NCBI GenBank assembly: GCA_977017645.1
Contig: OZ360223.1
Span: 193,316,001-193,380,000, forward strand
Reading direction: 5' to 3'
DNA: 64,000 bases
From: Torpedo marmorata
Taxonomy: Eukaryota
In this document: positions 5,442 through 60,220 of the stretch, piece by piece
Layout of the letters: each line of letters begins with the position of its first letter
Numbering within the stretch: position 1 is the stretch's first letter
Made by a program: the position numbers and the translations under genes
The notes under the pieces: generated by a model
Told to the model about the DNA's origin: nothing
Database searches by the model: none
The model's input: the letters and a program-made list of their open reading frames with translations, nothing else

Positions 5442-7327
5442 ATGTAAAATCTCCTGTAATATTCAAAACAGAAAATTAAACCACTGCTCAGAGCACTTTT
5501 TTGACAATCTACACGGGATAATCCAATTATGACAACTTTTGTCGTGCTTGATATTCATAAATTACATTTTTCAGTCTCAGAACTGTTGCTGGCATACTTA
5601 TAATTACAATACATAAATCAGTACAGTTTTATTTCACTGAGGATTGTTTCATTTCATTTAATGTCTATTAATTTAAGCTAACAGAACCATTTATAACTCA
5701 CAGGTCTTTTTCATACTTTAAATATAATGCAATAGCACATGATATTGACTATGTATGCTAAAAACACAACCTCCAATGTGATTAAAATCAGTGGCATTAC
5801 CTTCTTGGGGAGCATTAATACCAAAACATCCTTGCCACTCCTCAGCCACTCCACAATCTCTATTCCTTTCCCAAAACACTGAATTGCAAGGTCAGGAGGT
5901 GCCGCACTTGCCCTTTCACCTCCACCTTGCCAAAGCCACAATGCTTCCCTTCCATCTGACAGCAATTTCCACTCTTCACTGGACAAATAAAATGCAAACT
6001 GGCTGATCATTCTGCTGAATTCCCCCCTTCAGTCCACAACCATGATTCAAAGCTTCCTTATATGCACCATATTAATTATCTGTCCTACTTCCATTCTGCT
6101 CAGTTCTCAACACTATTCCTTGGAAGCTCAATGTTAGTTTGTGGAATAAGCTTAAATCATTGAGTTTGAACATTTTAGAAGATAACCACTGCTCCTGTTC
6201 TTTGGTGTAGCAGGTGCTGGCAATGATACTGCTATCCATCTACCACCTTTTTCCTCATTTAAAAAAAAATATTTGACACCTTTTTTGCCTTGTCATATCT
6301 TTTATCCAACCAAATAATATTTCTTCCTCTTCATTTATTTCATCCTCTCTCCACACTTTCTCAATCTCTTTTTCTTATTATATCTCATTAAAATTCTAAA
6401 GTTTCCAGCACCGATGAAGGTCAATGAACTTATATATTAATTAACTTAAATATCAACTCTCTTTTAGTCGTCATAACTGCTAAATTATCTGTTTTTATTG
6501 CAACTTTCCAGAAATAGTAGAAATTTGGCCTTAATTAGACTGCTTGTAAATCTTATTAATTTCTAAAAGAAAGAATGCCAGTTTATATACTATTGCAAAT
6601 GTTTCTTTCCTACTTCACCAGTATTGTAATTACATGTTTGTTTCTTGCTTCCATTTCCCCAAAGACATACAAGATTTATTTTTAACACTGGTTACAGACT
6701 CTGCTTTGACTTTCGTAATATAACCCAAGGACTACAGTATCATCACACACTGAAATACAATGCTTCCTTTTAAATTCATTAATCACTTTTGTAAACCGGT
6801 GTTTCTCTCTCTTCAATTATCTATCTTAAAGCTATTTACAAAAAATATTGAAAAATTATAAGGAGAAAATATTTTACTGATGTTTCATAATACTGCACTG
6901 ATCAAGTGCCCCACCCAGAACTCATATATCCACACTGAACTTGGTCAGACGTGGAAGGCTATATAGTTGGCCCAATCATATCCCAGAGTCCAGCAGCGTG
7001 TTCTGGACAGCAGCAATGCTTTGGGTGGAGCAAGGGGAGCCTTGAGATTTTGGCTCAATTTCTATCTCTCTATTAATACTGTCTGGCCTGCTCACCATGT
7101 TCCACAACCCTGGTATTGACAAAGAAGCAAAATTTGCCACTTTTGCTCATTCTTGGCAGTTCGCAAGGCTGGAGGCAGGGTTTTGCCAGTTGTGAAGGTT
7201 TAAGTGGTTTCAACAGTATTTAAATCTTGAACATATTTTTAAAATATTAAAACTGGAGTTCATAATCATAAAAAATTAAAACCTAAAATTGTAAAGAACT
7301 AAAAATGCATAATTATAAATGTTAAAC

Positions 7328-7684
7328 TGTAGCGCGTCGCTACGGCTATAGCTCTGCGCATCGAGTTGGTCGTCGCTCTAGTTCTGGAGCTCAGGAGAGA
7401 GATACACACCCTCCGAGCGTCAAGACAGAACTGCCTATTCTGCCGTCGGCTCTGCCTTTTATAGGCGGGCCGAGCCTGACTGCTGCGTCACGGATGGGGC
7501 GTGGCCTAAGGCGTGACGCCCAGGATTGGTCGAGCCACGATCCATCCTTAGGGATTGGCCCGTTCACTCCTCGCCGTTGTGGCCTATGGGAACGGGCCGT
7601 CCGAATCACGTGCCGCCTGCGCGATCGCCGTGTTCGAACACGGCTCTCTGTGTCGGCCTGCGGAGTAGGTCGCGGGCTGCTACA
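7328..7684 (-). repeat. 3' LTR of the Gypsy element (357 bp)
   Basis: About 95% identical to 11430-11784 by my count (about 17 substitutions, mostly transitions, plus a 2-bp indel); adjacent PPT ggttctggggggggg; TATAAAA and two CCAAT boxes on the minus strand. Confidence 0.95.
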
Positions 7685-10600
7685 CAACCCCCCCCAGAAC
7701 CGGCGATCTGTGCGGTGGCCTTGTCCTTGGGAGGCCGCCCCCTGCGGCGTGGTATAGGGTGATTGACTGGTTGGCCAGGGTCCAGGTGTGCTGGCTTGAG
7801 TTGGTCAACCGCGACCGTTTCCTCCCTGCCGCCAACATCTATGACACAAGTGGAGCCGTTGTGTTTGATAACCCGGTACGGCCCTTCGTACGGTCGTTGG
7901 AGTGGTGGCCGATGCGCCCCTCGCCTTACAAACACATGCCTGCAGTCCTTCAAGTTCCTTGGAATATATGTTTTAGGCTGGCCGTGCGCCCTGGGCTGTG
8001 CCGGGGCCAGCGTACCCAGTTGTTGCCGCAGACGAGTCAGGGCTACCGCTGGAGTGTCCTCCATGTTCCGGGCGTCGGCCAGGAACTCACCCAGGATGAC
8101 CAGGGGTGCGCCATAGACCATCTCCGCTGCAGACACGTCAAAATCGTCTTTGGGCACGGTGCGGATGCCCAGAAGAACCCAAGGCAGTTCATCAGCCCAG
8201 TGTGGTCCTGTGAGCCAAGCCATAAGGGCCGATTTGAGGTGCCTGTGGAACCTCTCCACCAACCCGTTGGCCTGAGGATGGTATGTCGTAGTATGATGGA
8301 GTTGTGTTCCCAGGGTGTTGGCCAAAGCCTCCCACAGGCTGGAGGTGAACTGGGCACCTCTGTCCGACGTAAGGTGCTCCCGGACTCCAAACCGCGCCAC
8401 CCAAGTACTTAGCAAGGCCCTGGCACACGACTCTGCGGATGTTTCCACAAGCGGGACTGCTTCTGGCCACCTAGTCAGACGATCCATCATGGTCAATAGG
8501 TATCGAGCACCTCTTGACACTGGCAGTGGGCCTACAATGTCCACATGCACATGGTTGAACCTCCGTCGTGCCGGCTCGAATGACTGGAGAGGGGCTTTAA
8601 TGTGCGTCTGCACCTTTGACGCCTGGCAATGCATGCAGGTCTTGGCCCACTGACTAACCTCCTTACAGAGACCATGCCATACGAACCAGCTTGCCACCAT
8701 CTTAACCGTGGTTCTGATGGCTGGGTGCGCCAGGTTGTGGATCGTGTCGAAAACCCGTTTTCTTCACGCTGCGGGTATGACGGGTCTCGGCGTACCAGTC
8801 GAGGTGTCGCACAAAAGCATCTGCTTTCCTGGGCCGATGCGAACGTCCTCCAGACGGAGACCGGTTACCGCCGTCCGGTATGCAGGTATGCCGAGGTCTG
8901 CTCGTTGTGCCTCAGCCAGGGCTGCATAGTCAATGCCTGAGGCGAGGGCGTGTACTTCCAGTATGACTGGCCGAGATAGCGCATCGGCCACCACATTCGA
9001 CTTCCCGGCAATGTGTGCTATATCCATGGAGAACTCGGACACGTACCTTTGCTGCCTGGCTGACCATGGGTCCGACACTTTGCCGAAAGCAAAGATGAGC
9101 GGCTTGTGGTCCGTGAATATTTTGAACCTCCTGCCCTCCAGGAAGTATCGGAAATGTCGGACCGCCAGGTATAGAGCTAAGAGCTCCCGATCAAAGGCAC
9201 TGTACTTGAATTCCGGTGGGCGGAGGTGCTTGCTGAAAAAGGCCAGCGGCTGCCATTTTACAGCGATCAGCTGCTCAAGTACTCCCCCGACCGCTGCGTT
9301 GGAGGCGTCCACAGTGAGGGCTGTCGGGGCGTCTGTCCTAGGATGCACCAGAAGGGTGGCGTTTGCCAGGGCGTCTTTGGCGGCTCGGAAAGCCTCTGAT
9401 GCCCCCTGTGTCCATTCGATTTCTTTCTTTGGGCCTGCCATGAGGGAGAATAAGGGCCGCATGATGCCAGCTGCTGCCGGTATGAAACGATGATAAAAGT
9501 TAATCATACCGACAAACTCCTGCAGGCCCTTTATCGTTGCGGACTTTGAAAATGATCGGATGACCTCCACCTTTTCGGGTATTGGCCTGGCCCCATCCCT
9601 GTTAATTTTGGTGCCCCAGGAAATCGATGGACTCCCGCCCGAACTGGCACTTGGCAGGGTTGATTATCAACCCGAACTCCTTCAGGCGGGTGCACACCTG
9701 TCTTATATGGATGGCATGTTCAGCACGATTGCGGCTGGCTATCAGTATGTCGTCCAAATTAATGAAGGTGAACTTGAGATCCCGGCCCACCGCGTCCATC
9801 AACCTCTGGAAGGTTTGAGCTGCGTTCTTCAGGCCGAACGGCATTCGAAGAAACTCAAACAGACCAAAGGGGGTGATAATGGCAGTCTTGGCGATGTCTT
9901 CCAGCTGAACCAGGATCTGATGATAGCCCTTAACGAGGTCCACCTTTGAGAATATACGTGCCCCCTGTAGATTAGCGGTGAAGTCCTGGATGTGGGGCAC
10001 CGGATATCTGTCCGGTGTGGTGGCCTCGTTGAGACGGCGGTAATCCCCGCATGGTCTCCAGCCCCCTGCTGCCTTGGGCACCATGTGGAGTGGGGAGGCC
10101 CAGGGGCTGTCAGAACGCCGCACAATGCCCAACTCTTCCATCTTCCGGAACTCTTCTTTGGCGAGATTCAGCTTCTCGGGAGGAAGGCAGCGCGCCCTGG
10201 TGTGAAGGGGAGGTCCCGTCGTCATGATATGATGCTGAACTCCATGCCTAGGTTCCGCCGAGGAGAAATGTGGCGTCGTGATGGCAGGGAATTCGGCCCT
10301 AATCCGTGCCATCTCATTGTCCGTAGCTGCTACCGAGTGCAGACAGGGGGCAGTGAGCTCAGTTCCACTCAGGGAAAGAGTCTGAAAAGTTGTGGCATGC
10401 ACTAATCTTCGCCCCTTAATGTCCACAAGTCGGGAATTGGCCGCACCGCCGCCAGCGTGAACTTCCAGGTAAAATGATTATCCCCAAAACGGAGGGGGAT
10501 GGTGCGGGTGCCAAAAGTGCAAATATCCGAATTATTGGCCGCTCTCAGCCCTTGTCCAACCCTGCTGCTGCGGATGTCGGAGCTGGAAGGTGGAAAAACA

Positions 10601-10722
10601 CTGACTTCGGCCCCGGTATCGACCAGGAACCGGCGGCCCGACATGATGTCCTGTACACGGAGTAGGTTGTGATGCAGGCTGACCACCGCAACCATCAACG
10701 GCGGCCGGCGCAGGCTTTTCCC
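7606..10722 (-). pseudogene. Gypsy pol (protease, RT, RNase H, integrase), disrupted
   Basis: FLVDTGAEVS; [16 protein letters not shown]; catalytic YLDD mutated to NLDD; TVDAS..ELLALYLA..TDHKPL; VHVDIVGPL..SDRG..NGLVERFH; GPY motif. Contains frameshifts, a small deletion near 10430 and a TGA at 8764. Confidence 0.92.
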
Positions 10723-11387
10723 TGAAATGCACAGGGGGAACGGCATCGACGAGCCTCGAAACCCCACCGCTGGTGGTAGAAACAGTACTCCTGACCGGTG
10801 GGCTCCATCGGTTGGCGGGTCAACTATTCGGGAAGCCGCCCACTCGTTCGTCGCGGACGAGACGTGGACACTTGCTCCATTGTCGCACAGTCGACTTTCT
10901 TCGCCACCCAGAGCACATCCGCTCGGGCAGCTACCTTCCTGGGGTCACTGAAATCCGCTTCCGCGAGCAACAGCCGGATGTCCTCTGGCAATCGCTCCAG
11001 GAAAACCTGCTCGAGCAGCAGGCAAGGTCTGTGGTCATCCGTTAAGGCAAGCATGTCGCTCATGAGGGCGGAAGGGGCCCTGTCCCCCAAGCCGTCCATA
11101 TGCAACAATCGGGCTGCCCGCTCTCGCCTCGAGAGCCCGAAAGTGCAGGACAATAGCTCCTTGATGGCCACATACCTCCCCTGCTCTGGAGGACGCCGCA
11201 GGAAGTCCACAATCCTGGCCGCCGTCTCCTGCTCAAGGGCGCTTACCACGTGGTAATAGCGGGCTGTGTTGTCGGAGATTCTTCGAAGGGCGAACTGTGC
11301 TTCGGCTTGCTCGAACCATACCAGCGGCTGCGATGTCCAGAAGCTCGGCAGCTTCAACAAAACCACGTTGATTGAAGCTTGTTCCAT
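10695..11387 (-). pseudogene. Gypsy gag (CsRN1-type) with a premature TAG at 10824-10826
   Basis: KLPSFWTSQPLVWFEQAEAQF N-terminal motif; after the stop the same frame continues with CFYHQRWGFEARRCRSPC (C-X2-H-X9-C-X3-C). Confidence 0.9.
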
Positions 11388-11415
11388 CTTCAGGTCCAAA
11401 TCGCAGTTTGGACCA

Positions 11416-11428
11416 GTCGGGGTCACCA
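11416..11428 (-). promoter_or_regulatory. Primer-binding site complementary to the tRNA-Trp 3' end
   Basis: TGGTGACCCCGAC one base inside the 5' LTR; matches the first 13 nt of the canonical Trp PBS TGGTGACCCCGACGTGAT. Confidence 0.9.
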
Positions 11429-11429
11429 C

Positions 11430-11784
11430 TGTAGTGCATCGCTATGGCTATAGCTCTGCGCGTCGAGTTGGTCGTCGCTCTAATTCTGGAGCTCAGGAGA
11501 GAGATACACACCCTCCGAGCGTCAAGACAGAACTGCCTATTCTGCCGTCGGCTCTGCCTTTTATAGGTGGGCCGAGCCTGACTGCTGCGTCGCGGATGGG
11601 GCGTGGCCTAAGGCGCGACGCCCAGGATTGGTCGGGCTACGATCCATCCTTGGGGATTGGCCCATTCCCTCCTTGCCGTTGTGGCCTATGGAAACGGGCC
11701 GTCCGAATCACGTGCCGCCTGCGCGATCGCCGTGTTCGAACACGGCTCCGTGTCGGCCTGCGGAGTAGGTCGCGGGCCGCTACA
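11430..11784 (-). repeat. 5' LTR of the Gypsy element (355 bp)
   Basis: Direct repeat of 7328-7684, followed on the minus strand by the PBS. Confidence 0.95.
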
Positions 11785-13789: not shown

Positions 13790-14383
13790 TAAAGATCTGT
13801 GCTGATCAACTTACCAAGATATTCACAGATATCTTCAATATCTCACTCCAGCAGGGTGTGGTACCCAACTGCTTCTAACAGGTGTCAATCATACCGGTGC
13901 CCAAGAAGAGTGCAGTAACCTGCCTTAACGACTATCGACCAGTAGCACTTACATCAAAAGTGATGAAGTGTTTTGAAAGGCTGGTGTCAGCTCCTGTCTG
14001 AGCGGTGACATGGATCCATTCCAGTTCGCCTATCGCGGCAACAGGTCTACGGCGGATGCCATCTCACTGGCTCTACACAAAGCCCTGGAACACCTGGACA
14101 GCAAAGATGCATACATCAGGATGCTCTTTATCGACTACAGTTCAGCATTTAACACCATCATCCCCTCAAAACTGATCAGCAAACTCCAAGACCTGGGAGT
14201 TAACAACCCACTGCGTAATTGGATCATGGATTTCCTCACCTCCAGACCACAATCAGTGAAGATTGGTAAGAACTTCTCCTCCACAATCTCCATCAGTACC
14301 AGAGCACCACAGGGTTGTGTTCTTAGCCCCCTGCTCTACTCACTTTACACCTATGACTGTGTAGCTCGGTACGACAATAACAC
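13790..14383 (+). mobile_element. Rex1/Babar-type LINE, 5' part of RT, interrupted by the BEL element
   Basis: [34 protein letters not shown] and [11 protein letters not shown] motifs. Ends ..DNNT and resumes with IYKFADD at 21076. Confidence 0.92.
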
Positions 14384-15016
14384 TGTAAGAGCCGTAGGCT
14401 TGATTACTTACCTTGGTCGCGGCGCTCCGATGTTCTCGGCGGGTTACGGAGGAGTCGCGGTGTTTGTAGGCCGTGCTAGGCCTATTTAGTACTCTGCGCA
14501 TGCGCAGAGTGTGCGCGGTGGAGTGCGCGCGGTAGAGTGTGCGCGAATCGGGAAAATGTTATTGGAAAAAGATGGCAACGTAGGAGGGTGAGTGAGATCG
14601 CCATATCTTTTATTGACCGTTTGATTGAACATTTAAACTCGTTTCATTATGGTTTATAGTCATTTAAAGTCATTTAATTGAACATCTAAATATAGTCAAA
14701 GGAATCGTTTAAAGCAACTCATTAAACATCGTTATCAAGAACTGTATATATTTCGTTTAAAGATATTTAAGTCATTGAAGATTGCTGCAAGTCATGTGTA
14801 AATAAAGTTTTTTGAACATGTCGGACTTTGTTAGTAAATTAATTGAAACGCGTCAAAGACAAGTATCTCACCAAGCCTCCAAATGACTATTGTTGGACTG
14901 AAGTCACTATATAATTAGTCAATAAAAGTGGTTGTTTGGAACAGAAAATTGAAGGAAAGAAGATAGAATAATCTCTCTGTGCTTTGGACTGATATTTAAA
15001 ATAAAATGGCCATCTT
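14384..15016 (+). repeat. 5' LTR of the BEL element (3' boundary uncertain, may extend to about 15121)
   Basis: Aligns with 20389-21064 up to atggccatctt; the terminal actata recurs at 15116-15121 after about 100 extra bp. Confidence 0.85.
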
Positions 15017-15930
15017 GGAGATGCCTTGAGTTAGGGGCAGTTTGTAATCCACATCCATCTGCCATGAGTAACAGCCAGAGAGGGATTTAAAGCTTCAAAT
15101 CTAATAGTAAAGTGTACTATAAAAACGTTGGAGAAACCATTTTTGGAAAATCAGCGATGTTATTGACGGATGTTGTGGTTGAAACTCATTTGTGAATAGC
15201 AGCACATTACAGTCATCTGAAGTGGTAGGCATAAGTCTGTGGACTCCTTCTGTGTATCTTTGGCAAGTTTGAACACAGTTTGGATTTGCTGTCGCTAGTC
15301 CATTGGGGACTGTTGATTTGGCTAGTATTGTGTATGCTTGAAGGACAGTGGAACAAGACGAGTAAAATGGCCGCAACAGCCTCTGATGCAACAGCCACTG
15401 ATGTATCAGTAGCTGACGCAGCAACCGCTGATGTTGCTGTTAAGGACCAACGTATTGAAGACATGAAGATTGCGGATATTAAAAAAGAAATGAAGCGACT
15501 GAAACAAGATATAAATGGAAATAAAAAGGTTCTAATCGCAAGATTGAAGCTGGCAAAGGAAAAAGAGGCAGTTTCATTAGATGAACAAGAAGATAACAAG
15601 GAAATGGCTGAAATTGTATCATCAAATGAAGAGGATGAAGAAAATGAAGAGAATGAAGAAAATGAAGAGGTTGAAGATGCAAAGGATGTACAATTCGAAT
15701 TGGAGAAAGAGGTAAGTAAGAAGACAACATATGACCTGCAGGACGAAATACAAGCAAGTGACAGTGTCGCAAATGCTGAAAGCAGGAGAAGCAAACGAAG
15801 TTCTGGTTCGAGCTCCAGAGTTTCTCGTACTTCAAGTTCTGCATCGTCATGTACAAAGATTGAAGTTAACTTGGCCGCTCTTCTTGCACAACAAAAAACG
15901 CTTAAGGATAAACATATTTTAGAACGACAG

Positions 15931-16065
15931 GAGGAGCAGCTAAGACAAAAGGAGGAGCAGCTAAGACAAAAGGAGGAGCAGCTAAGACAAAAGGAGGAGC
16001 AGCTGAAGGAGCAGATAAGGCAAGAGAAGGAGCAGCTTAGGCAGAGAAAAGAACAGCAGGAGCTG
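15931..16065 (+). repeat. 21-bp coding tandem repeat (EEQLRQK heptads) in BEL gag
   Basis: gaggagcagctaagacaaaag three times exactly, then degenerate copies. Confidence 0.9.
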
Positions 16066-17304
16066 GAAGCAAACATTACTATTGCCAAGGCAAAAAAGAA
16101 AGTAATAGAAGGCTCAATGGTATCTGGTGCTAGAAGTAAATTATCTAAAGTGTCTAATAATAAAAGGTTATATTTAAAAAAAGAGTCACAGGAAAAGAAA
16201 CCAACCAAAAGGGTAGATATTTTAGAACCAAGGATACAAGACTTGCAAATACAAGGACAAATCTTTCAAGAGCATATTGGTTTTGAGTCACATGTACCAG
16301 TGGTAACATATGAAGACAAAGCTGCGGCTTGGGTTCGGTCGAACGATGCAGCTTCCTTGTTATTTGAGTCAAGCATCAGAAATATGGAAGAAAATATACC
16401 AGTGAGGCTTACAGATACATTACCTGCAACAAGAGAAGGTGAACAGAGCAATGTATTGTTATCAAAAGGAAGACAAAATGAAATTACTCCATCATTGATT
16501 CAGTTACAGTCTCTCTCTTCTTTACCCAAGAAAGAGATACAAACTTTTGATGGTGATCCACTTCAGTACCAATCATTTATGAGATCTTTCAAACGCAATA
16601 TTGAAAATAAATACCAAGATCGTGATGAATGTCTTTATTATTTAGAAATGTTCACAAAGGGACATCCAAAAGAACTTGTAAAGAGTTGTCAACATATGTC
16701 TTCAGAAAGAGGATTAGACAGAGCTAAGGCTTTACTAGGACAACATTTTGGCAACAAGCATCGAATTGCTTTAGCTTATATGGAAAAGCTCTTAAATGGA
16801 CATCAATAAAACAGAATGATGTAAAGGCTCAACAAGAATATACTCTATTTTTAAGAGGATGTTATAATGCCATGGAAGATATCGATAATATTCATGAGCT
16901 TGAAGTGCTTGGTAATATGCGAATCATCTTAGAAAAATTACCTTACAAGTTATGGGATAGATGGAGAAATTTGGCTTGTGATTTACAAGGAAATTACGGT
17001 CGAAGAGCTACCTTAAAGTATTTGGTAAATTTTCTTGAACGACAGGTGTACATTGAAACAGATCCAATATATGGAAATACCAGAGACAATTCAATGGGCA
17101 AAGATGGAAGGAGGTCTAACTCACAGCCTAGTCTGAAATTGAAAAGGAGTATTTTTGCTACTAATGTGTCAGTTATAAATAAAGAAAAGGACAAAGTAAA
17201 TAAGGAAAAGGAAAGTTTGCCTGCTGAAAAGAGTTGTTTGTTCTGTAAAGGTGGACATGCTTTGGAAATGTGTTTACGATTGGAAAAGAAGGATCATCAT
17301 GAGA

Positions 17305-18068: not shown

Positions 18069-19085
18069 AGAAGATTGCTTTCTTAAAGGAAAATGAAATA
18101 TGTTTTAGCTGTCTGTGTAAAGGGCACATCAGTAAAAACTGCAAGAAGCGAATTAATTGTAACATATGTAAGTTGAAACGTCCTAGATTTTGCATATCCA
18201 TCAAAGAAACAAGGAATTGGAAAAGGAGCAAACAGAAACAAAGGAAACATCAGAAAACAATGTTATAACCTCGGTTCAGACAAGTGGTCTTACCGGGGCC
18301 GGTGTGGATAACTGCAAACTTTCAATAGTGCCTGTACAGGTCAAGACCAAGAAAGGGGATGCAACAGTACATACATATGCATTTCTAGACCCAGACAGCA
18401 CTGCATCTTTTTGCACGGAAGGACTAATGAACAAACTTAATATTCAAGGAAGAAGGTCAAGAATTATGTTAAAAACCATGGGATAAGAAAAGGTCATTGA
18501 AACCAGCATTGTTTCAGGCTTAGAGGTTGCTGGATTGGATGACAAAAAATTTTGTGATCTTCCAAGTTTATACACTCAGAAGACTATGCCTGTGCATGAA
18601 GGAAATATTCCTCATCAAAATTATATACATTATTTAGCCTATTTAGCTTATTAGGTTTATTTACCTGAAATTAACTCTGAGATAGAAATGCTGATTGGTT
18701 CAGATGTGCCAAAGGATTTGGAACCACAAGAAGTAATACAGAGTAGAAGGAATGGACCTTACGCTGTTAGAACCAAGCTTGGTTGGACAATTAATGGACC
18801 ATTGGAAAGAAATAATGATATTGCACAGGAACAATTAGTGATAAATATTAACAGGATTTCGGTTGTGAAAGTTGATGAGTTAAGGGAAGAGCAAAAGACT
18901 GTGAATAAGAAAATCACTTTTGAAGAAAAGAAAATAGATCAACATGAAAATAAATCAAAGGTAATTAAAACAACATTGAAAAATTATGTTCATCAGAAAT
19001 AAATGAAAATGAAGTATAAGAAGATGTTGCAAATAATACTATTGATTATTCATGTGTAATTGAATCAGATACAAGAATAAAACAA

Positions 19086-20003
19086 GTGACTGAGAACAAA
19101 TCTGAAAGTAGATTTTGTAGTTCAGAGGTTACAGCAGACAAAGTCAATGAAGAAATATTGCAATGTGATGTAAAACTGGAGAACGCAGAAAATTGTGCTG
19201 ATGGAATAAAGAAGAATGTGAATGATAATTTAATGCAATTGAATTCAGAGAACAAAATGTTGAAAGGGGAATTGGAAATAGTAGATAATCATGAAAACAG
19301 TAAACAGAAAGATTTAATTGTAAGTAAAATTTGCAAAGTCAGAAAGCGGAAGAAAAGAATAACTGCTGAAGATATGAATACAGTTATTGAGGAAAGAGAT
19401 TCAGCATTATCAAGATGTAAAAGGTTGGAGGAAGAAATTAATATTTTGAAAGAGAACAAGTTATTGGTTAATAACACAAAACAGTTGAATAAAAAAAACA
19501 ATCAAGATTGTAAATTGAATGTTCAGCTATTAACAATGCAGAAAGAAAGTGATATTGCATTGCAGAAATGTAACAAGCAAGATGAAGGAATTCAAAAATT
19601 TCAAGTTTACCACAGCAGGGTTGACAATAGAAATATCAATGTATCACATGATATTTTGACTTCAGATCAATTTATTAATTTATTGGAAGGAACTGAGACT
19701 GAATTGAAAGTTGCAAAATTGGATTTGGAATTGCAGGAAAAGGCAATAGAAACCAGAGTGGTTAAAGAGACTCGTTTATTAAAATCGAAAGGATCAGATA
19801 AATATTCAAATTCTCGTTCTAAGAGTTTAAATTCTTCACATGAGAAGTGGAATGCTGAAGAAAGGAATAAAGTGAAACGACATGCTGAAGAAGTGCCTCA
19901 TGTTAAATTCAAAAGAAAAACTGTATCTATTTTGTCTGAGGAAGATTTGAGGTTTACTGGTCGACGTTTTAACTCAAAGATTCTGGAGATAAAAGAACTT
20001 TGA
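19086..20003 (+). CDS. Coiled-coil ORF inside the BEL element containing a MIPOL1-derived segment (about 19317-19616)
   Basis: IVSKICKVRKRKKRITAEDMNTVIEERDSALSRCKRLEEEI...IQKFQVYHS aligns with recalled human MIPOL1 IVDRIYKTKECKMRITAEEMSALIEERDAALSKCKRLEQEL...IQTLRVYYS. Probably once continuous with gag-pro. Confidence 0.75.
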   Translation: MTENKSESRFCSSEVTADKVNEEILQCDVKLENAENCADGIKKNVNDNLMQLNSENKMLKGELEIVDNHENSKQKDLIVSKICKVRKRKKRITAEDMNTVIEERDSALSRCKRLEEEINILKENKLLVNNTKQLNKKNNQDCKLNVQLLTMQKESDIALQKCNKQDEGIQKFQVYHSRVDNRNINVSHDILTSDQFINLLEGTETELKVAKLDLELQEKAIETRVVKETRLLKSKGSDKYSNSRSKSLNSSHEKWNAEERNKVKRHAEEVPHVKFKRKTVSILSEEDLRFTGRRFNSKILEIKEL

Positions 20004-20388
20004 GGAGACTGTAATTATTGTGAACGATTCAACTACAGGAAACTTCTGGTTACTTGGAAAAATTATTGAGACTATTTAGGACAAAAGGGGACTTGTGCGT
20101 CAAGTTCGAATTAAAACTAAGACTGGCTTTCTAAATAGACCCATTAACAAGGTCTGCCTTCTGTTGGAGACGGAGGAACTTTGATAAATACAAACTGACT
20201 TTATTTGTTGTTGTATACTTCACAGGTACAGACTTTTGTTGATTCAGAGTTATGGTAAACTCTGGTCTTAAGAAGAAAGAAGAAAGAAGATTTGTATATT
20301 GTTTGAATGTTATGGTTATTGTTATTTATAATTGATTGTGTAATTATTATTTAAGACATTGCGTCTAATTATAATAATTAGGGGCCGT

Positions 20389-21070
20389 TGTAAGAACCGT
20401 AGGCTTGATTACTTACCTTGGTCGCGGCGCTCCGATGTTCTCGGCGGGTTACGGAGGAGTCGCGGTGTTTGTAGGCCGTGCTAGGCCTATTTAGTACTCT
20501 GCGCATGCGCTAGAGTGCCGACTGGTGCATGCGCAGTTGGGAATTGACGGCGGTGTGCGCGGTGGAGTGTGCGCATTGAGCATGCGCGAATCAGGAAAAA
20601 GTAATAGGAAAAAGATGGCGACGTTGGAGGGTGAGTGAGATCGCCATATCTTTTATTGACTGTTTCATTGAACATTTAAACTCGTTTCATTATGGTTTAA
20701 AGTCATTTAAAGTCATTTAATTGAACATCTAAATATAATCAAAGGAATCATTTAAAGGAACTCATTAAACATCGTTATCAAGAACTGTATATATTTTGTT
20801 TAAAGAAGATATTTAAGTCATTGAAGATTGCTGCAAGTCATGTATGTAAATAAAGTTTTTTGAACATATCGGACTTTGTTAGTAAATTAATTGAAACGCG
20901 TCAAAGACAAGTATCGCACCTAGCCTCCAAGTGACTATTGTTGGATTGAAGTCACTATATAATTAGTCAATAAAAGTGGTTGTTTGGAACAGAAAATTGA
21001 AGGAAAGAAGATAAAATAATCTCTCTGTGCTTTGGACTGATATTTAAAATAAAATGGCCATCTTACTATA
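20389..21070 (+). repeat. 3' LTR of the BEL element
   Basis: Direct repeat of the 5' LTR with an expanded GC-rich gcgcatgcgc region; contains AATAAA signals. Confidence 0.88.
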
Positions 21071-22011
21071 AGCACCATCTACAAATTTGCTGACGATACC
21101 ACGGTAGTAGGTTGCATAAAGGAAGGGGATGAGTCAGCACACAGGATGGAGATTGAAAACCTGGCTGAATGGTGCACCAAAAACAACCTTGCACTCAATG
21201 TCTCCAAAACTAAGGAGCTGATTGTTGACTTCAGGAAAGGAAAGCCAGAGGTCATTGGGGGATCAGAGGTGGAGAGGATGAGCAAATTTAGGTTCTTGGG
21301 AGTCACTATCTCGGAGGATCTTTCCTGGACCCAACATACCAATGGCATCGTGAAGAAAGCACGTCAGCACCTCTACTTCCTCAGGAGCTTGCAGAGGTTT
21401 GGTATGACACCAGAAACCGTGGCAAATTTCTACAGATGTGTGGTGGAAAGTGTGCTGACTGGCTGCATCACGGTCTGGTATGGGAACACCAATACCCCTG
21501 AGTGTAAAGCCCTCCAAAAGGTAGTGGATACAGCCCAGGACATTACTGGCAAAACCCTCCCCACTATTGAGTACATCTACAGGGAACGCTGCCGTCGGAG
21601 GGCAGCAAAAATCATCAAAGACCCACACCACCCAGCACACGCTCTGTTCTCGCTGCTGCCATCAGGAAAGAGGTATAGGTGCCACAAGACTCGCACCACC
21701 AGGTTCAGGAACAGCTGCTACCCCTCTACCAACAGAATCCTCAATGACAAAGTCAAACAAGAGACTCATTTAAGGACTCTTATTCGTGCACTTTATTGAT
21801 TTTTCTTTGCTCTCTGTATTGCAGTCATTTTCATTTTCAGTTTCATTCGTTACCCGTTAGCAGTTCTTTTGATTGTTTACATGTTTACGCTGTGTACAGT
21901 TTACTTTTTGCACGACCAGTTAGTGGTAATTCTGCCGCGCCCGCAGGAAAAAAGAATTTCAGGGTTGTATGTGACGTCATGTATGTACTCTGACAAAAAA
22001 TCTGAAATCTG
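21071..22011 (+). mobile_element. Rex1/Babar-type LINE, 3' part with tail
   Basis: IYKFADDTTVVG, LNVSKTKELIVDFRK and HPAHALFSLLPSGKRYR motifs; tail tctgaaatctga. Confidence 0.92.
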
Positions 22012-51191: not shown

Positions 51192-54100
51192 TTTTTAAAA
51201 TATTTTATTTAAAATTTTAAATCACAAAATACATAAAATAAAATATGAAATTATCAAAATATTTGTGATACATTTCCACTCCCACTCCCACCCTCCCCTC
51301 CCCAACCCTCCCAACCCCACTAATCTAATAAAAATAAAAATATATAAAATAAAAATAGAGAAAGAAAAAAAAAAGAAATAAAAAGATAGAGTAAGGAGAA
51401 TGCCAATCTAAAAAACATACATCTATAAACTAATTCTATTGTGGAAGTCAGGTATGCCAGTAGATCCGATACCCAGAGATCTTCAAATCCTTAAACCATA
51501 TCATATTAAACCTTAAATCATATATGGGCTCCAAATTTTTAAGAAAAAATGATATTTATTACGTAAATTATAGGTAATTTTTTCAAGTGGTATACACGAA
51601 CGAAGTTCTGCATGCCATCTTTCTAATCCTAAATCTAAATCAGATTTCCAAGTAATAGCAATACATTTCTTTGAAACAGCTAAGGCAATTCGCAAAAATT
51701 CTATTTGATACATGTTTAATTTCATCTTAATACTAAATTTTCTAATATCTCCAAACAAAAATATCATAGGATCCATTGGAAATGTAATCTTAAATACTTT
51801 ATCTAAATTTTTTTTAACTTTCAACCAAAAATCATAAACTTTTGGACAAAACCATGTAGAATGTACAAAAGAACCTTCTTCTTTATTACATCTAAAACAT
51901 AAACCTGATAATGTCGGATTAAATTTCTTTAGTTTTTTAGGTGTTAAATATAATTGATGAAAAAAATTATATTGTACTAATCTATATCTAACATTAATAA
52001 TCTTCGTCATACTTAATTTACATAATTCTTTCCAGTGATTTTCATCTATTGTTACATTCAAATCTAATTCCCATTTTAATCTTGATTTATGAATTCCTAC
52101 TTTAGAAGTTTTCCTCTGAAACAATTTATACATTTGAGAAATAAATTTATTTACATCTCCTTTAGTAACTAATAATTCTAATTCATTCTGTCTTAGTAAA
52201 ATCAAACTATAACCTAATTTCTCAATCAAAAATGCTCTAATTTGATAATAAGCAAAACGTGTATTATCTAGTATATTAAATTTATCCTTCATTCTTTGAA
52301 AAGTAATGAATTTCCCAGCTTCAAAACAGTCATTAATTTTCTTAATTCCTTTTTGAAACCAAATTTTAAATAATTGATTATTAATAGTAAATGGAATAAG
52401 TCCATTTTGATATAAAGGCATCCTTGGAGAAATCATTCTTCTTCCTCCTATTTCCTTATCCGTCTTATTCCATATTTCTAACAAATGTTTAAAGATAGGA
52501 GAATTTTTCCTTCTTGTTGATATTAATTTAGAATCCCATTTATAAATAACTTCTTCTTTGTAATCTTCTTCTATATTATTTAATTCTATTTTAATCCAAG
52601 CAGAAGATTTAGTTGGATCAAAAAGTTCATTAACAAATTTTAATTGAGCTGCTTTATAATAATTTTGGTAATTAGGAAGTTGTAAACCACCCATTTCAAA
52701 ATTCCAAGTTAATTTTTCTATACCTACTCTTGCTAACTTTCCTTTCCATAAAAATTTTCTAATAATTGAATTTAAGTCTCTAAAAATTTTTTGAGGAACT
52801 TCATAAGGAATTGATTGGAAAAGATATTGAATTCTTGGAAAAATATTCATTTTAATACAATTTACCCTTCCCATTAAAGTTATAGGTAAATCTTTCCAAT
52901 TTTCTAAATCCTTTTTTATTTTCACAAATAATGGTAAATAATTTAATTTATATAAATTATCCAATTTTGTATCAATCTTTATTCCCATATATTTAATTCC
53001 TTCTTTTGCCCATTTAAATTGTGTAATTTCTTTACACTTATTATAATCCCCTTGTGATAATGCCATAATTTCACTTTTATCAGAGTTAATTTTATATCCC
53101 GATATTTCCCCATATTCTCTCAATAACGCAAACAGTTGTACTAAAGATGTAGTAGATTTTGTCATATATATCAATACATCATCTGCAAATAAACTAATTT
53201 TATGTTCTTCCGTTCCAACTTTAATACCAACTATTTTAGGATCTTTTCTAACTAATTCTGCCAAAGGTTCTATCGCCAAAATAAATAACGCTGGTGACAA
53301 AGGACATCCTTGTCTAATAGATCTAGTCAGGGGAAATCTTGAAGAAATTTGTCCATTTGTAATTACTTTAGTGGATGGTTCTTTATATATAGTTTTAATC
53401 CAATTAATAAATATGGTTCCAAAACCAAATTTCTCCAATACCTTAAATAAAAAATTCCACTCTAATCTATCAAAAGCCTTTTCGGCATCTAACGTTAAAA
53501 CTAATGGTAAATCTTCCTTCTTTTTATGTAGATTAATTAAACTAATTAATTAAACTAATTAATCTAGCTATATTGTCTTTTGAATATCTATTTTTAATAA
53601 AACCAGCTTGATCTACATGAATTAAATCTGGTAAATAGTTAGCCATTTATTTGCTAGAATTTTTGCAATTATCTTATAATCTACATTTAACAATGAAATA
53701 GGTCTATATGATTCAGTTTTCAATACATCTCTATCTTTTTTTGGTATGACTGTAATTATTGCATTTAAGAAAGTATCTGGTAATGAGTAGGTTTCCGTAA
53801 TTTGATTCAATACATCCATATATGGAGGTATTAATAAATCTTTAAACTCTTTGTAAAATTCTGATGGAAATCCGTCTTCACCTGGAGATTTAACACTCTT
53901 TAAAGAAGTAAGAACTTCATTAACTTCCCTCATTGAGAAAGGTAAATCTAAAGATTCTCTACTTTGGGTATTTAATTTAGGTAGTGTAATTTTAGATAAA
54001 AATCTAATAATTTTAGATTCATCTTGATCAATCTGAGATTTATATAAATTCAAATAATAATCTTTAAAAGAATCATTTATTTCTCGAGGTTTATAAGTTA

Positions 54101-55335
54101 TTTCCCTAGAATTCTTTTTCCTTATGGCATTTATTGTTCTAGAAGTTTGATCTTTTTTTAATTGCCATGCCAAAACTTTATGAGCTCTTTCCCCTAACTC
54201 ATAATATCTTTGTTTAGTTCTTTCAATTAATTTTTCCATTTTATATGTTTGTAATAGATTATAATGTAATTTCTTCCCAATTAAATTATTCCTTTTTTGA
54301 ATTGATCTATTTTTTTGTAAATCTTTTTCTAAGCACTCAATCTCCTTCTCTAAATTTTCTACTTCCCTAAGATAATCTTTCTTAATTTTTGCTGAATAAC
54401 TTATTATTTGACCTCTTGAATAAGCTTTTAAAGCTTCCCAAATAATAAATTTATTGTCAGTAGAATTAGAATTTATTTGTAAAAATTCCTGAATTTCCCT
54501 TCTCATATAATCACAAAAATCTTTTCTTTTTAATAAAGAAGAATTAAATCTCCAGCTGTATACAGTTTTTTCTTTTTCCGGAATTATACAAGATATTAAT
54601 AAAGGTGAATGATCAGAAATTATTCTCGCTTTATAAGATGCTTGCATTATTCTATTTTGAACCTGTAAAGACAATAAAAATAAATCTATCCTAGAATATG
54701 AATCATGTCTAAAAGAATAAAAAGAATAATCTTTTTCTCTAGGATTCAATTTCCTCCAAATATCTATTAAATTTAAATCTTTCATCAAAGTAAGAACTCT
54801 TTTAGCAATTTTAGTTTTAGCAAGTGATCTTGAAGTTTTATCCATTATTGGATCTAAACAACAGTTGAAATCTCCACCAATTAGAATATTCTCATTAGCT
54901 TCTGACAAATGTAAAAAAGAATCTTGAATAAACTGTTCATCATCTGCATTTGGTACATACAAGTTCATAAGTGTCCAGAGTTCTGAGTAAATCTGACAAT
55001 GTACCAAAACATATCTACCTGCCACATCTATAACTACCGATTGTATCTTAAAAGGTAACTTTTTATTAATTAATATAGCTACCCCTCTTGCTTTAGAATT
55101 AAATGAAGAAGCCAACACTTGACCAACCCACTCTTTTTAGTTTCTGATGTTCCGAATCTATCAAATGCGTCTCTTGTAAAAAAGCTATATCTACATTCAA
55201 CTTTTTAATATACGCTAAAGTTCTCTTTCTTTTAATCGGATTATTAAGCCCGTTTATATTAATACTTACTACATTTATTTTCTTACTATCCATCATAACT
55301 AAATTTTATCAAATTTCTTTCGATCAAATCTACCA
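51192..55335 (-). mobile_element. AT-rich L1-clade LINE, truncated just upstream of a complete but frameshifted ORF2
   Basis: TSD agtcacattcttt (51179-51191 and 55336-55348). ORF2 51513-55296 has SININGLN, QETHL, GGDFN, SDHSP, KSPGEDGF, YRPISLLN, RQGCPLSP, LFADD and CFRC; poly(A). Confidence 0.95.
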
Positions 55336-55549
55336 AGTCACATTCTTTAAAAACATTTAACCGTCGCTGCATTTGCAGGTTCCTCCCCCTCCATGGAGCC
55401 GCCCGAAAGACAAACAATAACATTATGGATAATTAACCCTCCCCTCCTCCAAATTTACAGATAAAGCCTCTGATCGGGGCGACTCTTACTAAGCCGGGAT
55501 AAGGAAACACTTTAAGAGAGTCACTCCAACGGCAAACGGCATCAACCAG

Positions 55550-56133
55550 AATTGAAATTATCTATATGGCAATTAAAGTTCGTAAAAATTGCATTAGCAG
55601 TAGCTAGGAAATGTATAGCAGTAACTTGGAAATCGGATACAAATTTAAGTATGGATAGATGGAATTCAAAGATGCAGAGTTGTATCCCATTGGAAAAAAT
55701 AACGTACAATATGAGGAATAAATATGGATTCTTTTTGCAAATTTGGCGTCCATTTATCCAATTATTAGGAATGAATATTTAAATATGTTGCCCTACATCC
55801 CAGACCCTGCTGACTCTCTTAAGTTTAAATTTGAAGAATGAACATTGTTGAATTTCTTGCACCGAGCCATGGATCTGTACAGATATATTTTCACTTTTTC
55901 TTTTCCTTTCTCTTTTTTTTTTAGTTCGAGTATGGGGAGGGGATAAGGGATGGGAAGGGTGGAGGGTGGGTTGTTTTAGTAAGGGTGGATTTAGATGGGG
56001 TTAGATTCATGGTAATACGAAATTCCTATGTATCGAACTTAACCAATGTTTACTATGTATTTTATGTTATTTTGTATTATTGTGAAAAAATTTGAAAAAT
56101 TTAAAATAAAATATTTTAAAAAAACCCAAAAAA
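55550..56133 (+). mobile_element. L1 3' fragment (same family as 17305-18068)
   Basis: QLKFVKIALAVARKCIAVTWKSDTNLSMDRW; TSD aaccag (55544-55549 and 56134-56139); poly(A). Confidence 0.9.
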
Positions 56134-57839: not shown

Positions 57840-59612
57840 ATTTTTTTTTTAATTATTATTTTATTTAAATTTTTAAATCACACAATACATAAATCAAAAT
57901 ATATAGTTTCCAAAATACAAGTGATATAAATTTCCTCCCCCGGCACCCTCCCACCCTTCCCTAACCCCCCCAACCCCACTATTCTAAAAATAGTTAAAAA
58001 AAAAAGAAAAAAAAAGATTAATAGTGAGGAGAGAACCATCTAAAAACTAATTTTATTCTGGAGGTTAAACTCGCCAATAGACCTGATTTCTAGAGATTTC
58101 AAATCCTTAAACCCATAACTCTCATATATGGGCTCCAAATTTTTAAAAAAGAATGATATTTATTGCGTAAATTATAAGTAATCTTTTCCAAAGGAATACA
58201 TGAATGAAGTTCTGCATGCCACCTATCTAAACTTAAATCTAAATCTGATTTCCAAGTAATAGCAATACATTTTTTTGAGACAACTAAAACAATTCGCAAA
58301 AATTCTACCTGATACATATTCAATCTATTCCTAATACTAAATTTTCTAATATCTCCAAATAAAAATAACATAGGTTCCATTGGAAACATAACGTTAAAAA
58401 CTCTATCTAAAAAATTCTTAACTTTCAACCAAAAATCTTGAATCTTTGGACATAATCATGTAGAATGAACAAAAGAACCTACTTCATTCTTACATCTAAA
58501 ACACAAGTCCGACAATGTCGGATTAAATTTCTTTAATTTTTTTGGTGTTAAATATAGTTGATGAAAAAAATTATATTGTACTAATCTATATCTAACATTA
58601 ATAACTTTAGTCATACTTAATTTACATAAATCTTTCCAATGATTTTCAGCTATATTAACATTTAAATCTAATTCCCATTTTAGTCTTGATTTATGTAATC
58701 CTACTTTAGGCATTTTTCTCTGAAATAATTTATACATTTGAGAAATAAACTTATTAACATTTGCTTTAGTTATTAATAATTCTAACTCATTATGTCTTGG
58801 AGCAATCAAATCTTCTCCTAATTTCTCAATCAAAAAAGCTTTAACTTGATAATAAGCTAACCATGTATTGTCTAATACATTAAATTTTTCCTTCAATCTT
58901 TGAAACGTAACAAATCTTCCAGCCTCAAAACAATCTTTAAAATTCTTAATTCCTTTTTAAAACCATGCTTTCAATAACTGATTATTCATAGTAAATAATA
59001 AAAGTGGAGTTTGATATAATGGCATATTTAAAGAAATTAATCATTTCCCACCTATTTCTTTATCTACCTGTGTCCAAATTTCCAACAAATGTTTAATAAT
59101 CGGTGAATTTTTCTTTTTTACTAATAATAATTTAGAATTCCACTTATAGATAATATCCTCTTTATAATTTTCTCCTATATTATTTAATTCTATATTAACC
59201 CAAGCAGAATTTTTAGTTAAATCAAAAAATTCATTAACAAATTTTAATTGAGCTGCTTTATAATAATATTGAAAATTAGGAAGTTGCAATCCTCCCATCT
59301 CATAATTCCATGTTAACTTATCCATACTCACTCTTGCTAACTTCTCTTTCCATAAAAATTTCCTAATAATAAACTTTAAATCTTTTTTAAAAAAATTTGG
59401 AATTCCAAAAGGAATTGATTGAAAAAGATATTGAATTCTTGGAAAAATATTCATCTTAATACAATTTACTCTCCCCATTAAAGTTATAGGCAAATCTTTC
59501 CAATTTTCCAAATCTTTCTTTATTTTCGTAAATAAGGGTACATAATTTAATTTATATAAATTTTCTAATTTTGTATCCACTTTAATTCCCAAATATTTAA
59601 TTCCTTCTTTTG
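57840..59612 (-). mobile_element. AT-rich L1, 5'-truncated (same family as 51192-55335)
   Basis: 17-bp TSD ccagaaataaaattatt (57823-57839 and 59613-59629); ORF2 C-terminal fragments. Confidence 0.94.
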
Positions 59613-60220
59613 CCAGAAATAAAATTATTGATTCTATTCTATTAAATTAGGTTATGTTTTGAGAAAGAAAGACAAAAAAATGATTCGATGATTTCACATG
59701 ATTTCCACAATAGCATTGAGTACTTTTAAATAAGTCTTTACAACTTCAGTATCTTGCTAATCTAAAGTAGCTAAAGTAATCTGCAGCCACAGCATCACAA
59801 GAAGGAGAGTACTTCAAGGTAATTCATTTTCAAATATCACCTCCTATTCCTCTCTTCATTAAGTGAAATATTTAACACCTCCAAAGGTCAATTAAAAAGG
59901 ATTTGGCTATTGATCTTGCTAGCTTGCAAGAACTTTCGCATCTTTCTGGGAAGCACATCTCCATTCTAACCCCACATTGTTTAGCTCATTTCTTTTGGTT
60001 AGGAAGATGTTAGATATGTACCAATCCATCATCACAGTTAAGTCTCTCAACCAGAGTTTGGTCTACTGTTAGCTGCCCAGTGCTAATCAATTATATAACT
60101 GGCTTTCGGGGCTTATTAAGTATGCCATCCATCATTTATGGGCCCAATCTTTATGTCCTCTCAATAGCCTTGGCATGCGTTAATCACTACCATACAGAGG
60201 GGCAGAGTTCAAATACTGCC

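Follow-up and report, generated by a model that had tools for sequence, protein, structure and literature searches.

A BEL/Pao element with a spliced host cassette in place of reverse transcriptase and integrase, and a MIPOL1 piece likely copied from a circular RNA

The window, a stretch of 64,000 nucleotides from Torpedo marmorata that was analysed here as a whole, contains an LTR element with host coding sequence in its interior, which raises the question from what kind of RNA this sequence was copied and why it can still be read as one open frame. The initial annotation had recognised positions 19317-19709 as an intronless fragment of MIPOL1 (mirror-image polydactyly 1), captured in sense orientation much as retroviruses transduce host genes. 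Both the identity and the retrovirus-like capture are confirmed. In a protein search MIPOL1 is the best match (E 5e-27, 52% identity) rather than a generic coiled-coil protein, and 94 of 1459 candidate proteins have E<=1e-3; all gene-named proteins among these are MIPOL1, and the other labels are one 'unnamed protein product' and one JGI label 'ThiS'. Library-wide phmmer analysis returned 39 matches, and sequence searches with the window ORF against Pfam and PDB gave nothing useful, the MIPOL1 models of Pfam occurring only as precomputed tags. The peptide lies within a stop-to-stop frame of 327 aa (19020-20003), so that the reported open frame stands for this part, while this copy is broken upstream of position 19020.

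The element and its cassette are on the forward strand and are composed as follows:

14384-14911, + strand: 5' LTR (TG...TA), preceded by the target site AACAC at 14379-14383
15367-17304, + strand: BEL/Pao gag with SAP domain (E 2.5e-5), 84% nucleotide identity to the autonomous copy L095
17305-18068, + strand: later LINE insertion, absent from the aligned copies and private to the window copy among those compared
18069-18894, + strand: gag end and protease region, with stops in the window copy; 90% nucleotide identity to L095, pol being cut off just after it
18891-19303, + strand: captured spliced BRCA1, two exons joined at 19002 (61% amino acid identity, E 6e-35)
19304-19615, + strand: captured MIPOL1 exons f (part), g and h, joined at 19415 and 19520; 82% nucleotide identity to the host exons
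19608-19623, + strand: putative back-splice junction from the exon h donor to the exon b acceptor, the join lying between 19615 and 19616
19616-19760, + strand: captured MIPOL1 exons b and c with an 81-nt in-frame deletion, from alignment to the host exons
19760-19981, + strand: captured spliced Elongin A, a part of exon 4 and then the exon 5 tail with the exon 6 start, joined at 19920 (84% and 90% nucleotide identity)
19982-20185, + strand: pol-end-like codons and stop (20001-20003), followed by a second pol 3' end of the autonomous type, from comparison with L095
20373-20388, + strand: polypurine-tract position, a 16-mer identical before the 3' LTR in copies of the window type (subfamily B) and autonomous copies
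20389-20959, + strand: 3' LTR, from alignment of the LTR pair

Direct LTRs, the polypurine-tract position and a 5-bp target duplication agree with the structure of BEL/Pao elements. The second target-site copy, AGCAC at 21071-21075, has one mismatch to AACAC, and the element splits a LINE reverse transcriptase (RT) fragment, the frames of which end at 14383 and resume at 21071; other copies are flanked by duplications of ATCCC, CCTCA, CTGAT and CTGCC. The two LTRs of the window copy differ at 25 of 632 aligned bases (4.0%). Behind the 3' LTR the window copy carries about 105 nt of duplicated 5' leader (to 21070), where other copies end at the equivalent of 20959. The LTRs of subfamily B and of the autonomous copies (L093-L102, window 14884-14920) end in TA, not CA, the primer-binding position reads TAGTCAA instead of TGG, and an inverted repeat, TGACTA..TAGTCA, spans the end of the LTR. 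The window copy itself is dead: gag is frameshifted near 16,800 (two overlapping frames) and interrupted by the LINE, the protease region contains stops, and the BRCA1 piece is frameshifted near 18,980-19,010. The LINE insertion is 86% identical to window 55545-55829. The joint 17301->18069 is present in all three sequence runs, which are contigs of unknown or guessed type, one of them possibly the assembly's own source; under the three organism labels the whole element including the cassette is covered, which shows presence and not transcription. Elsewhere the window harbours a separate LTR element on the reverse strand (7326-11727) with LTR ends of 95% identity and fragments of gag, RT and integrase, the motifs of which we take to be Gypsy-like. 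It also holds two related LINE copies on the reverse strand, 51513-55136 and 58099-59646, the former with long endonuclease and RT frames (504 and 678 aa).

The host MIPOL1 gene resides on contig C40, where 330 kb contain one copy of each exon, all with AG..GT ends and with lengths of 136 (b), 106 (c), 130 (d), 34 (e), 171 (f), 108 (g) and 95 nt (h). In the window the f|g and g|h joins lie at 19415 and 19520 without introns; they correspond to LSR|CK and LK|AQL, the two intron positions that the initial annotation had named, and the piece spans three joined exons rather than a single exon flanked by intron. The supposed colinearity with MIPOL1 mRNA, by contrast, does not hold, as exons f-g-h are followed by b-c and the piece is exon-permuted. 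What had been read as a weak continuation, DQFINLLEGTETELK, is not the next exon; it stems from exons b and c, located further upstream in the gene, and lacks the 81 nt deleted in frame; DQFINLLEG as a candidate for the next exon was rejected, as it aligns to exons b and c of the host gene. This arrangement extends far beyond the window: a MIPOL1 protein query on the genome finds residues ~335-464 directly followed by residues 205-294 at dozens of places, and the least diverged copies consist of f (from nt 48)-g-h followed by b-c-d (18 nt), 587 nt in total. At the h->b join the host donor and acceptor are reproduced to the base. The join contains the CAG left by use of the upstream AG in a NAGNAG acceptor, the acceptor that also maintains the reading frame of the linear mRNA. 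After 13 duplicates had been dropped, 64 copies spanned the junction, and every one of them aligns across h->b without gap. Exons b-h amount to 780 nt, a multiple of 3, and are stop-free when doubled. Exon a, exon i and the uncaptured d-e-f part are absent from every copy examined, and a MIPOL1 C-terminal query on the genome hits two places, both at the host locus. A reversed exon order that is exact at the splice sites, in a piece confined to the circularised exons, is what a retrocopy of a circRNA would look like. The claim of a spliced template is upheld; an ordinary mRNA is an unlikely source in view of the back-splice junction, and the MIPOL1 piece was likely copied from a circular RNA by template switching of RT.

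A linear RNA with repeated exons, produced by trans-splicing or from a tandem duplication of b-h that has since been lost, and then captured, is an unlikely alternative source of the h->b order. It would leave an identical exon-exact junction, so that DNA alone cannot separate both, and other routes to non-colinear junctions are noted by Dong et al. 2016 (PMC4897178). Against it, the host gene has a single copy of each exon, so that a genomic duplication explaining the exon order is absent today from the 330 kb, the ancestral state not being visible, and the capture is confined to b-h, no copy having exon a or i. The introns flanking exons b-h measure 49.6 and 61.8 kb, and exons h and b are 206 kb apart; long flanking introns fit back-splicing. 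Inverted repeats between the two introns (9 hits) are not commoner than direct ones (7 hits) and thus say nothing for or against circularisation. An exonic circ-Mipol1, which may comprise other exons, has been reported in mouse (PMC9888537) and also speaks against a linear template. That RT jumped backwards within ordinary MIPOL1 mRNA at an AG shared by the ends of exons a and h, hitting both boundaries by chance, is highly improbable: switches at microhomologies of 2-8 nt would have built the rest of the cassette and exons a and h do both end in AG, but only 6 of 31,579 in-frame backward mRNA jumps with >=2-nt microhomology lead from an exon end to an exon start (2e-4), and the other shared switch points, unlike h->b, fall inside exons.

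The parental MIPOL1 gene has itself received four B-type copies in its introns, three in sense orientation (G000:C40:64324001-64654000; L061, L062, L070, L077), and these might impair its splicing or interfere with the calling of circRNAs.

The segments flanking the MIPOL1 piece had been suspected to stem from other host mRNAs, and this suspicion proved right, with BRCA1 upstream and Elongin A (ELOA) downstream. The BRCA1 part gives 9 matches in a protein search (best E 3e-79), and in subfamily A copies it comprises four spliced host exons (contig C61) at 92-96% identity. The Elongin A part is found in Pfam (E 7e-16) and PDB (E 6e-40) and comprises spliced sequence from exons 4-8 of its host gene (contig C41). 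The nearest Elongin A and BRCA1 proteins are those of rays, and introns are absent at the MIPOL1, BRCA1 and ELOA joins. In subfamily C, ELOA exon 3/4 stands before BRCA1 and IARS1 after ELOA (E 2e-66), probably followed by a piece of NDC80 (E 1e-3); IARS1 and NDC80 both occur in 17 of 40 scored matches. A genome search for the host IARS1 and NDC80 loci returned element copies only. In this subfamily (L114-L116, L118, L119 and L046; e.g., G000:C60:14622001-14632000), one frame runs through ELOA, BRCA1, circular-type MIPOL1, ELOA, IARS1 and the probable NDC80. Many further IARS1-bearing copies continue differently after IARS1 and may hold other host genes. The microhomologies at switch points, read off the alignments, are TGGATT, CAGCAA, AG and AGATTTAA; they measure 6 nt at two BEL/host joins and 8 nt at one deletion, but 2 nt only (AG) at the BRCA1/MIPOL1 switch point. 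The MIPOL1/ELOA join holds a 17-nt linker that matches none of the four references.

What the cassette has displaced becomes apparent from comparison with an intact relative. A Peptidase_A17 search of the genome gave 6618 candidates, and among 10 copies taken from these, L093-L099 have single ORFs of 2018-2134 aa. The 2018-aa ORF of L095 contains SAP, DUF1759, RVT_1, Peptidase_A17, rve and DUF5641, and with this gag-pol domain set in one ORF L095 is regarded as an autonomous BEL/Pao element. Window gag and protease are 84-90% identical to L095 at the nucleotide level, whereas L095 3695-6882, from RT to integrase, is unmatched in the window and 18895-20002 stands in its place. The cassette ends in ILEIKEL*, which resembles the end of the L095 pol frame, and the match resumes from 20003 with L095 6883 onwards. 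The internal ORF is replaced, not interrupted, by the host cassette, and the window element is non-autonomous, being without its own RT, RNase H and integrase. DUF1758 in the subfamily A copy L041 (E 0.003) and DUF1759 in L041 and L052 are below cut-off. The LTRs of the autonomous family (L093-L099), which has an N-terminal SAP domain, are 0-1.2% diverged, so it must have been active very recently.

The family is large. A 20-letter motif across the junction has 4,781 exact matches in the 6.2 Gb host genome (control, 0), and a looser junction motif with one mismatch allowed has 11,372 (control, 472). As five junction copies occur in 600 kb of host-gene and arbitrary stretches, the true copy number may be several tens of thousands. 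From the first 100 listed places, 20 junctions were sampled at about even steps; each of the 20 follows BRCA1, precedes ELOA and is surrounded by BEL sequence. Seventeen belong to the window type (B) and 3 are intermediates. Copies of A match the host exons at 92-96% identity, those of C at 88-93%, the intermediates at 85-92% and those of B at 80-84%. In a tree of 37 rows the host falls among the A copies and a ladder leads from A over the intermediates to B, while a single branch separates B (99/93) from all other rows, and another does so for C (100/99). Divergence between paired LTRs is 4.1-9.2% in A and the intermediates (8 pairs), 2.9-5.4% in B (8 pairs) and 0-2.4% in autonomous elements (9 pairs from strong-scoring, mostly long-ORF copies, and so biased towards young ones). 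Breakpoints are identical between subfamily A copies, and such common breakpoints point to a single capture. Judging from the sequences, we infer that deletions followed the capture and that the cassette was recombined onto newer gag, pro and LTRs of the autonomous type. In L048 and L113 an A-type element is directly preceded, on the same strand, by a B-type element that is probably nested in it, which fits a younger age of B. L049 (7835-8954) has 405-nt tandem repeats (100%) within its MIPOL1 piece, and the same 10 kb contains another capture that is nearly identical; a recent duplication or an assembly artefact may lie behind this.

The reading frame has been kept through this history. All 14 junctions or deletions that are common to at least two copies preserve the gag-pro frame; 12 of these were scored, and the ELOA/IARS1 and IARS1/NDC80 joins were added from the translations of L115 and L116. 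With random and independent frames this outcome has a probability of ~2e-7, a figure to be read with the fact that the A and C copies came from a protein search, which favours in-frame copies. The call 'BRC600>MIP210 out', which placed 27 of 35 B copies out of frame, was rejected as BLAST over-extension: seven copies aligned from the true BRCA1/MIPOL1 switch are in frame, and the window frame reads through. The ELOA/pol-end join, out of frame in the A copy L121 and in frame in L043, was left out of the 14. The cassette frame ends in pol's own last codons or in a decayed form of them. Comparing the commonest codon per column between A and B over 328 codons of the cassette yields 31 synonymous and 93 non-synonymous changes and 0 stops, while neutral simulations with a matching spectrum (n=5000) predict 25, 91 and 10.4, respectively, and none of the 5000 was free of stops. 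The synonymous excess is not significant (P=0.10 overall), and for the MIPOL1 piece alone, for which a dN/dS measurement had been proposed, this comparison finds no amino acid constraint (P=0.66). Gag and pro compared with L095 show mild constraint, with 55 synonymous changes against 42 expected (P=0.016). Among private single-copy changes in the B cassette, 19 of 304 create stops, as expected from decay after insertion, and changes from GC to AT outnumber the reverse by 112 to 21. The open frame, and not the protein sequence, seems to be under selection in the replicating lineages: stops were purged while amino acids behaved neutrally, so these lineages needed an open frame rather than a particular protein.

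Why an open frame would be needed can be explained in several ways. The cassette may serve as a translatable stuffer that carries the ribosome to the stop of pol near the 3' LTR, an idea to which we would give about an even chance. Translation up to a stop beside the 3' LTR would spare the RNA the decay that an early stop followed by a long 3' tail provokes; alternatively, the open frame might benefit the element by having its RNA packaged by its own Gag. This is the least certain part of the proposed mechanism. A function of the chimeric tail for the element is rather unlikely: in this case the BC-box of ELOA would bring in an Elongin BC-cullin ligase, as is known from viral proteins, or particles would assemble more readily with the help of the coiled coil. 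The kept frame, the ELOA BC-box region retained in A and C copies, and dN/dS values of 0.39-0.58 for the ELOA and BRCA1 pieces against the host would agree with a functional tail, but these ratios include the purifying branch of the host itself, the A vs B synonymous excess is as weak as given above, and the commonest subfamily (17/20 sampled) lacks the BC-box region as well as 81 nt of MIPOL1. The captured genes are housekeeping or essential ones. Small-RNA silencing of the element would then also hit BRCA1, ELOA, IARS1 or NDC80, so that the cassette could act as a shield against silencing; maize elements have been described in a comparable conflict (PMC13317346), but this is distinctly unlikely here, as the dominant subfamily has drifted to ~80-84% identity with the bias from GC to AT and has deleted much host sequence, and frame retention would not be explained by it.

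Taken together, the family is best explained as a BEL/Pao element whose RT-integrase part was replaced by spliced host RNA. Host RNAs, namely BRCA1, Elongin A and circular MIPOL1 and in one branch IARS1 and NDC80, would have been co-packaged in germ-line particles, and RT would have jumped between them at short microhomologies; for both steps we rely on the template-switch model that Tan et al. 2016 put forward (PMC5131818). Within the MIPOL1 circle, RT might have entered in exon d, run backwards over the back-splice and left in exon f, which would account for 587 of 780 nt. The element, keeping its own Gag and protease, would depend on the autonomous family for RT and integrase supplied in trans. 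The full reading, in which an LTR element reverse-transcribed a host circRNA, stitched it between BRCA1 and Elongin A and became one of the most abundant families of the genome because any in-frame host RNA can fill for pol, is one that we hold to be somewhat favoured. If true, the family would preserve a germ-line circRNA in fossil form and show directly that circRNAs can enter genomes by way of LTR particles, and it would have provided >10,000 look-alikes of BRCA1, MIPOL1 and ELOA able to feed small-RNA pathways against the parental genes. With thousands of fragments of these three genes in one vertebrate genome, the annotation of genes and the calling of circRNAs will be led astray, and silencing of the fragments may come into conflict with essential genes. 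As the family separates selection for an open frame from selection for protein sequence, the reason for the former becomes testable.

Several known systems resemble the present family in part. The circRFWD2 pseudogenes of mouse, with 33 high-confidence copies and a mechanism that was called unresolved, share with it a non-colinear exon-exon junction in genomic DNA, which is the signature of Dong et al. for circRNA-derived pseudogenes, the lack of a poly(A) tail and an association with LTRs (Dong et al. 2016, PMC4897178). According to the available text, this association is an LTR enrichment in the flanks only, whereas here a defined LTR element with recognisable switch points and an autonomous partner encloses the piece, numbers at least ~11,000 copies and keeps it in the gag-pro frame; its copy number is hundreds of times that of the known circRNA pseudogenes (tens; PMC4897178). 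LTR-mediated retroposition in animals, including co-capture of several genes and the Pao element BATUMI as an example, was described by Tan et al. 2016 (PMC5131818), the main text of which does not contain 'circular', 'circRNA' or 'Rfwd2'. In their cases, too, spliced host RNA takes the place of some of the internal ORF, in sense orientation and often in frame, and the products spread onward as non-autonomous elements; microsimilarity marks the switch points of those cases, as it may do here. As far as that text goes, those cases are young or low-copy and their in-frame status is ascribed to youth, while here the frame survives ~15% divergence, stops are purged, and three to five genes are joined. 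Maize Bs1 is likewise an LTR element, with pieces of three transduced host genes in one hybrid ORF and switch points common to all copies, but it has 1-5 copies and a circular-RNA piece is not mentioned in the accessible text (PMC13317346, PMC5131818); the present family numbers thousands and is a vertebrate BEL/Pao one. With BEL/Pao elements (Belpaoviridae) it shares TG-start LTRs and 5-bp duplications, and its autonomous partner has gag DUF1759, the Pao peptidase and DUF5641, whereas in the derivative host cassettes have taken the place of RT, RNase H and integrase. Searches of the open-access literature turned up neither this family nor any BEL/Pao element with a circRNA in it, nor a defined, amplified LTR element that contains a back-spliced RNA. 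Each ingredient has a precedent, multi-gene capture by LTR elements on the one hand and circRNA-derived pseudogenes on the other, and their combination appears to be new: a probably circle-derived piece is caught here within a copying element, together with its breakpoints, its intermediates and its autonomous partner.
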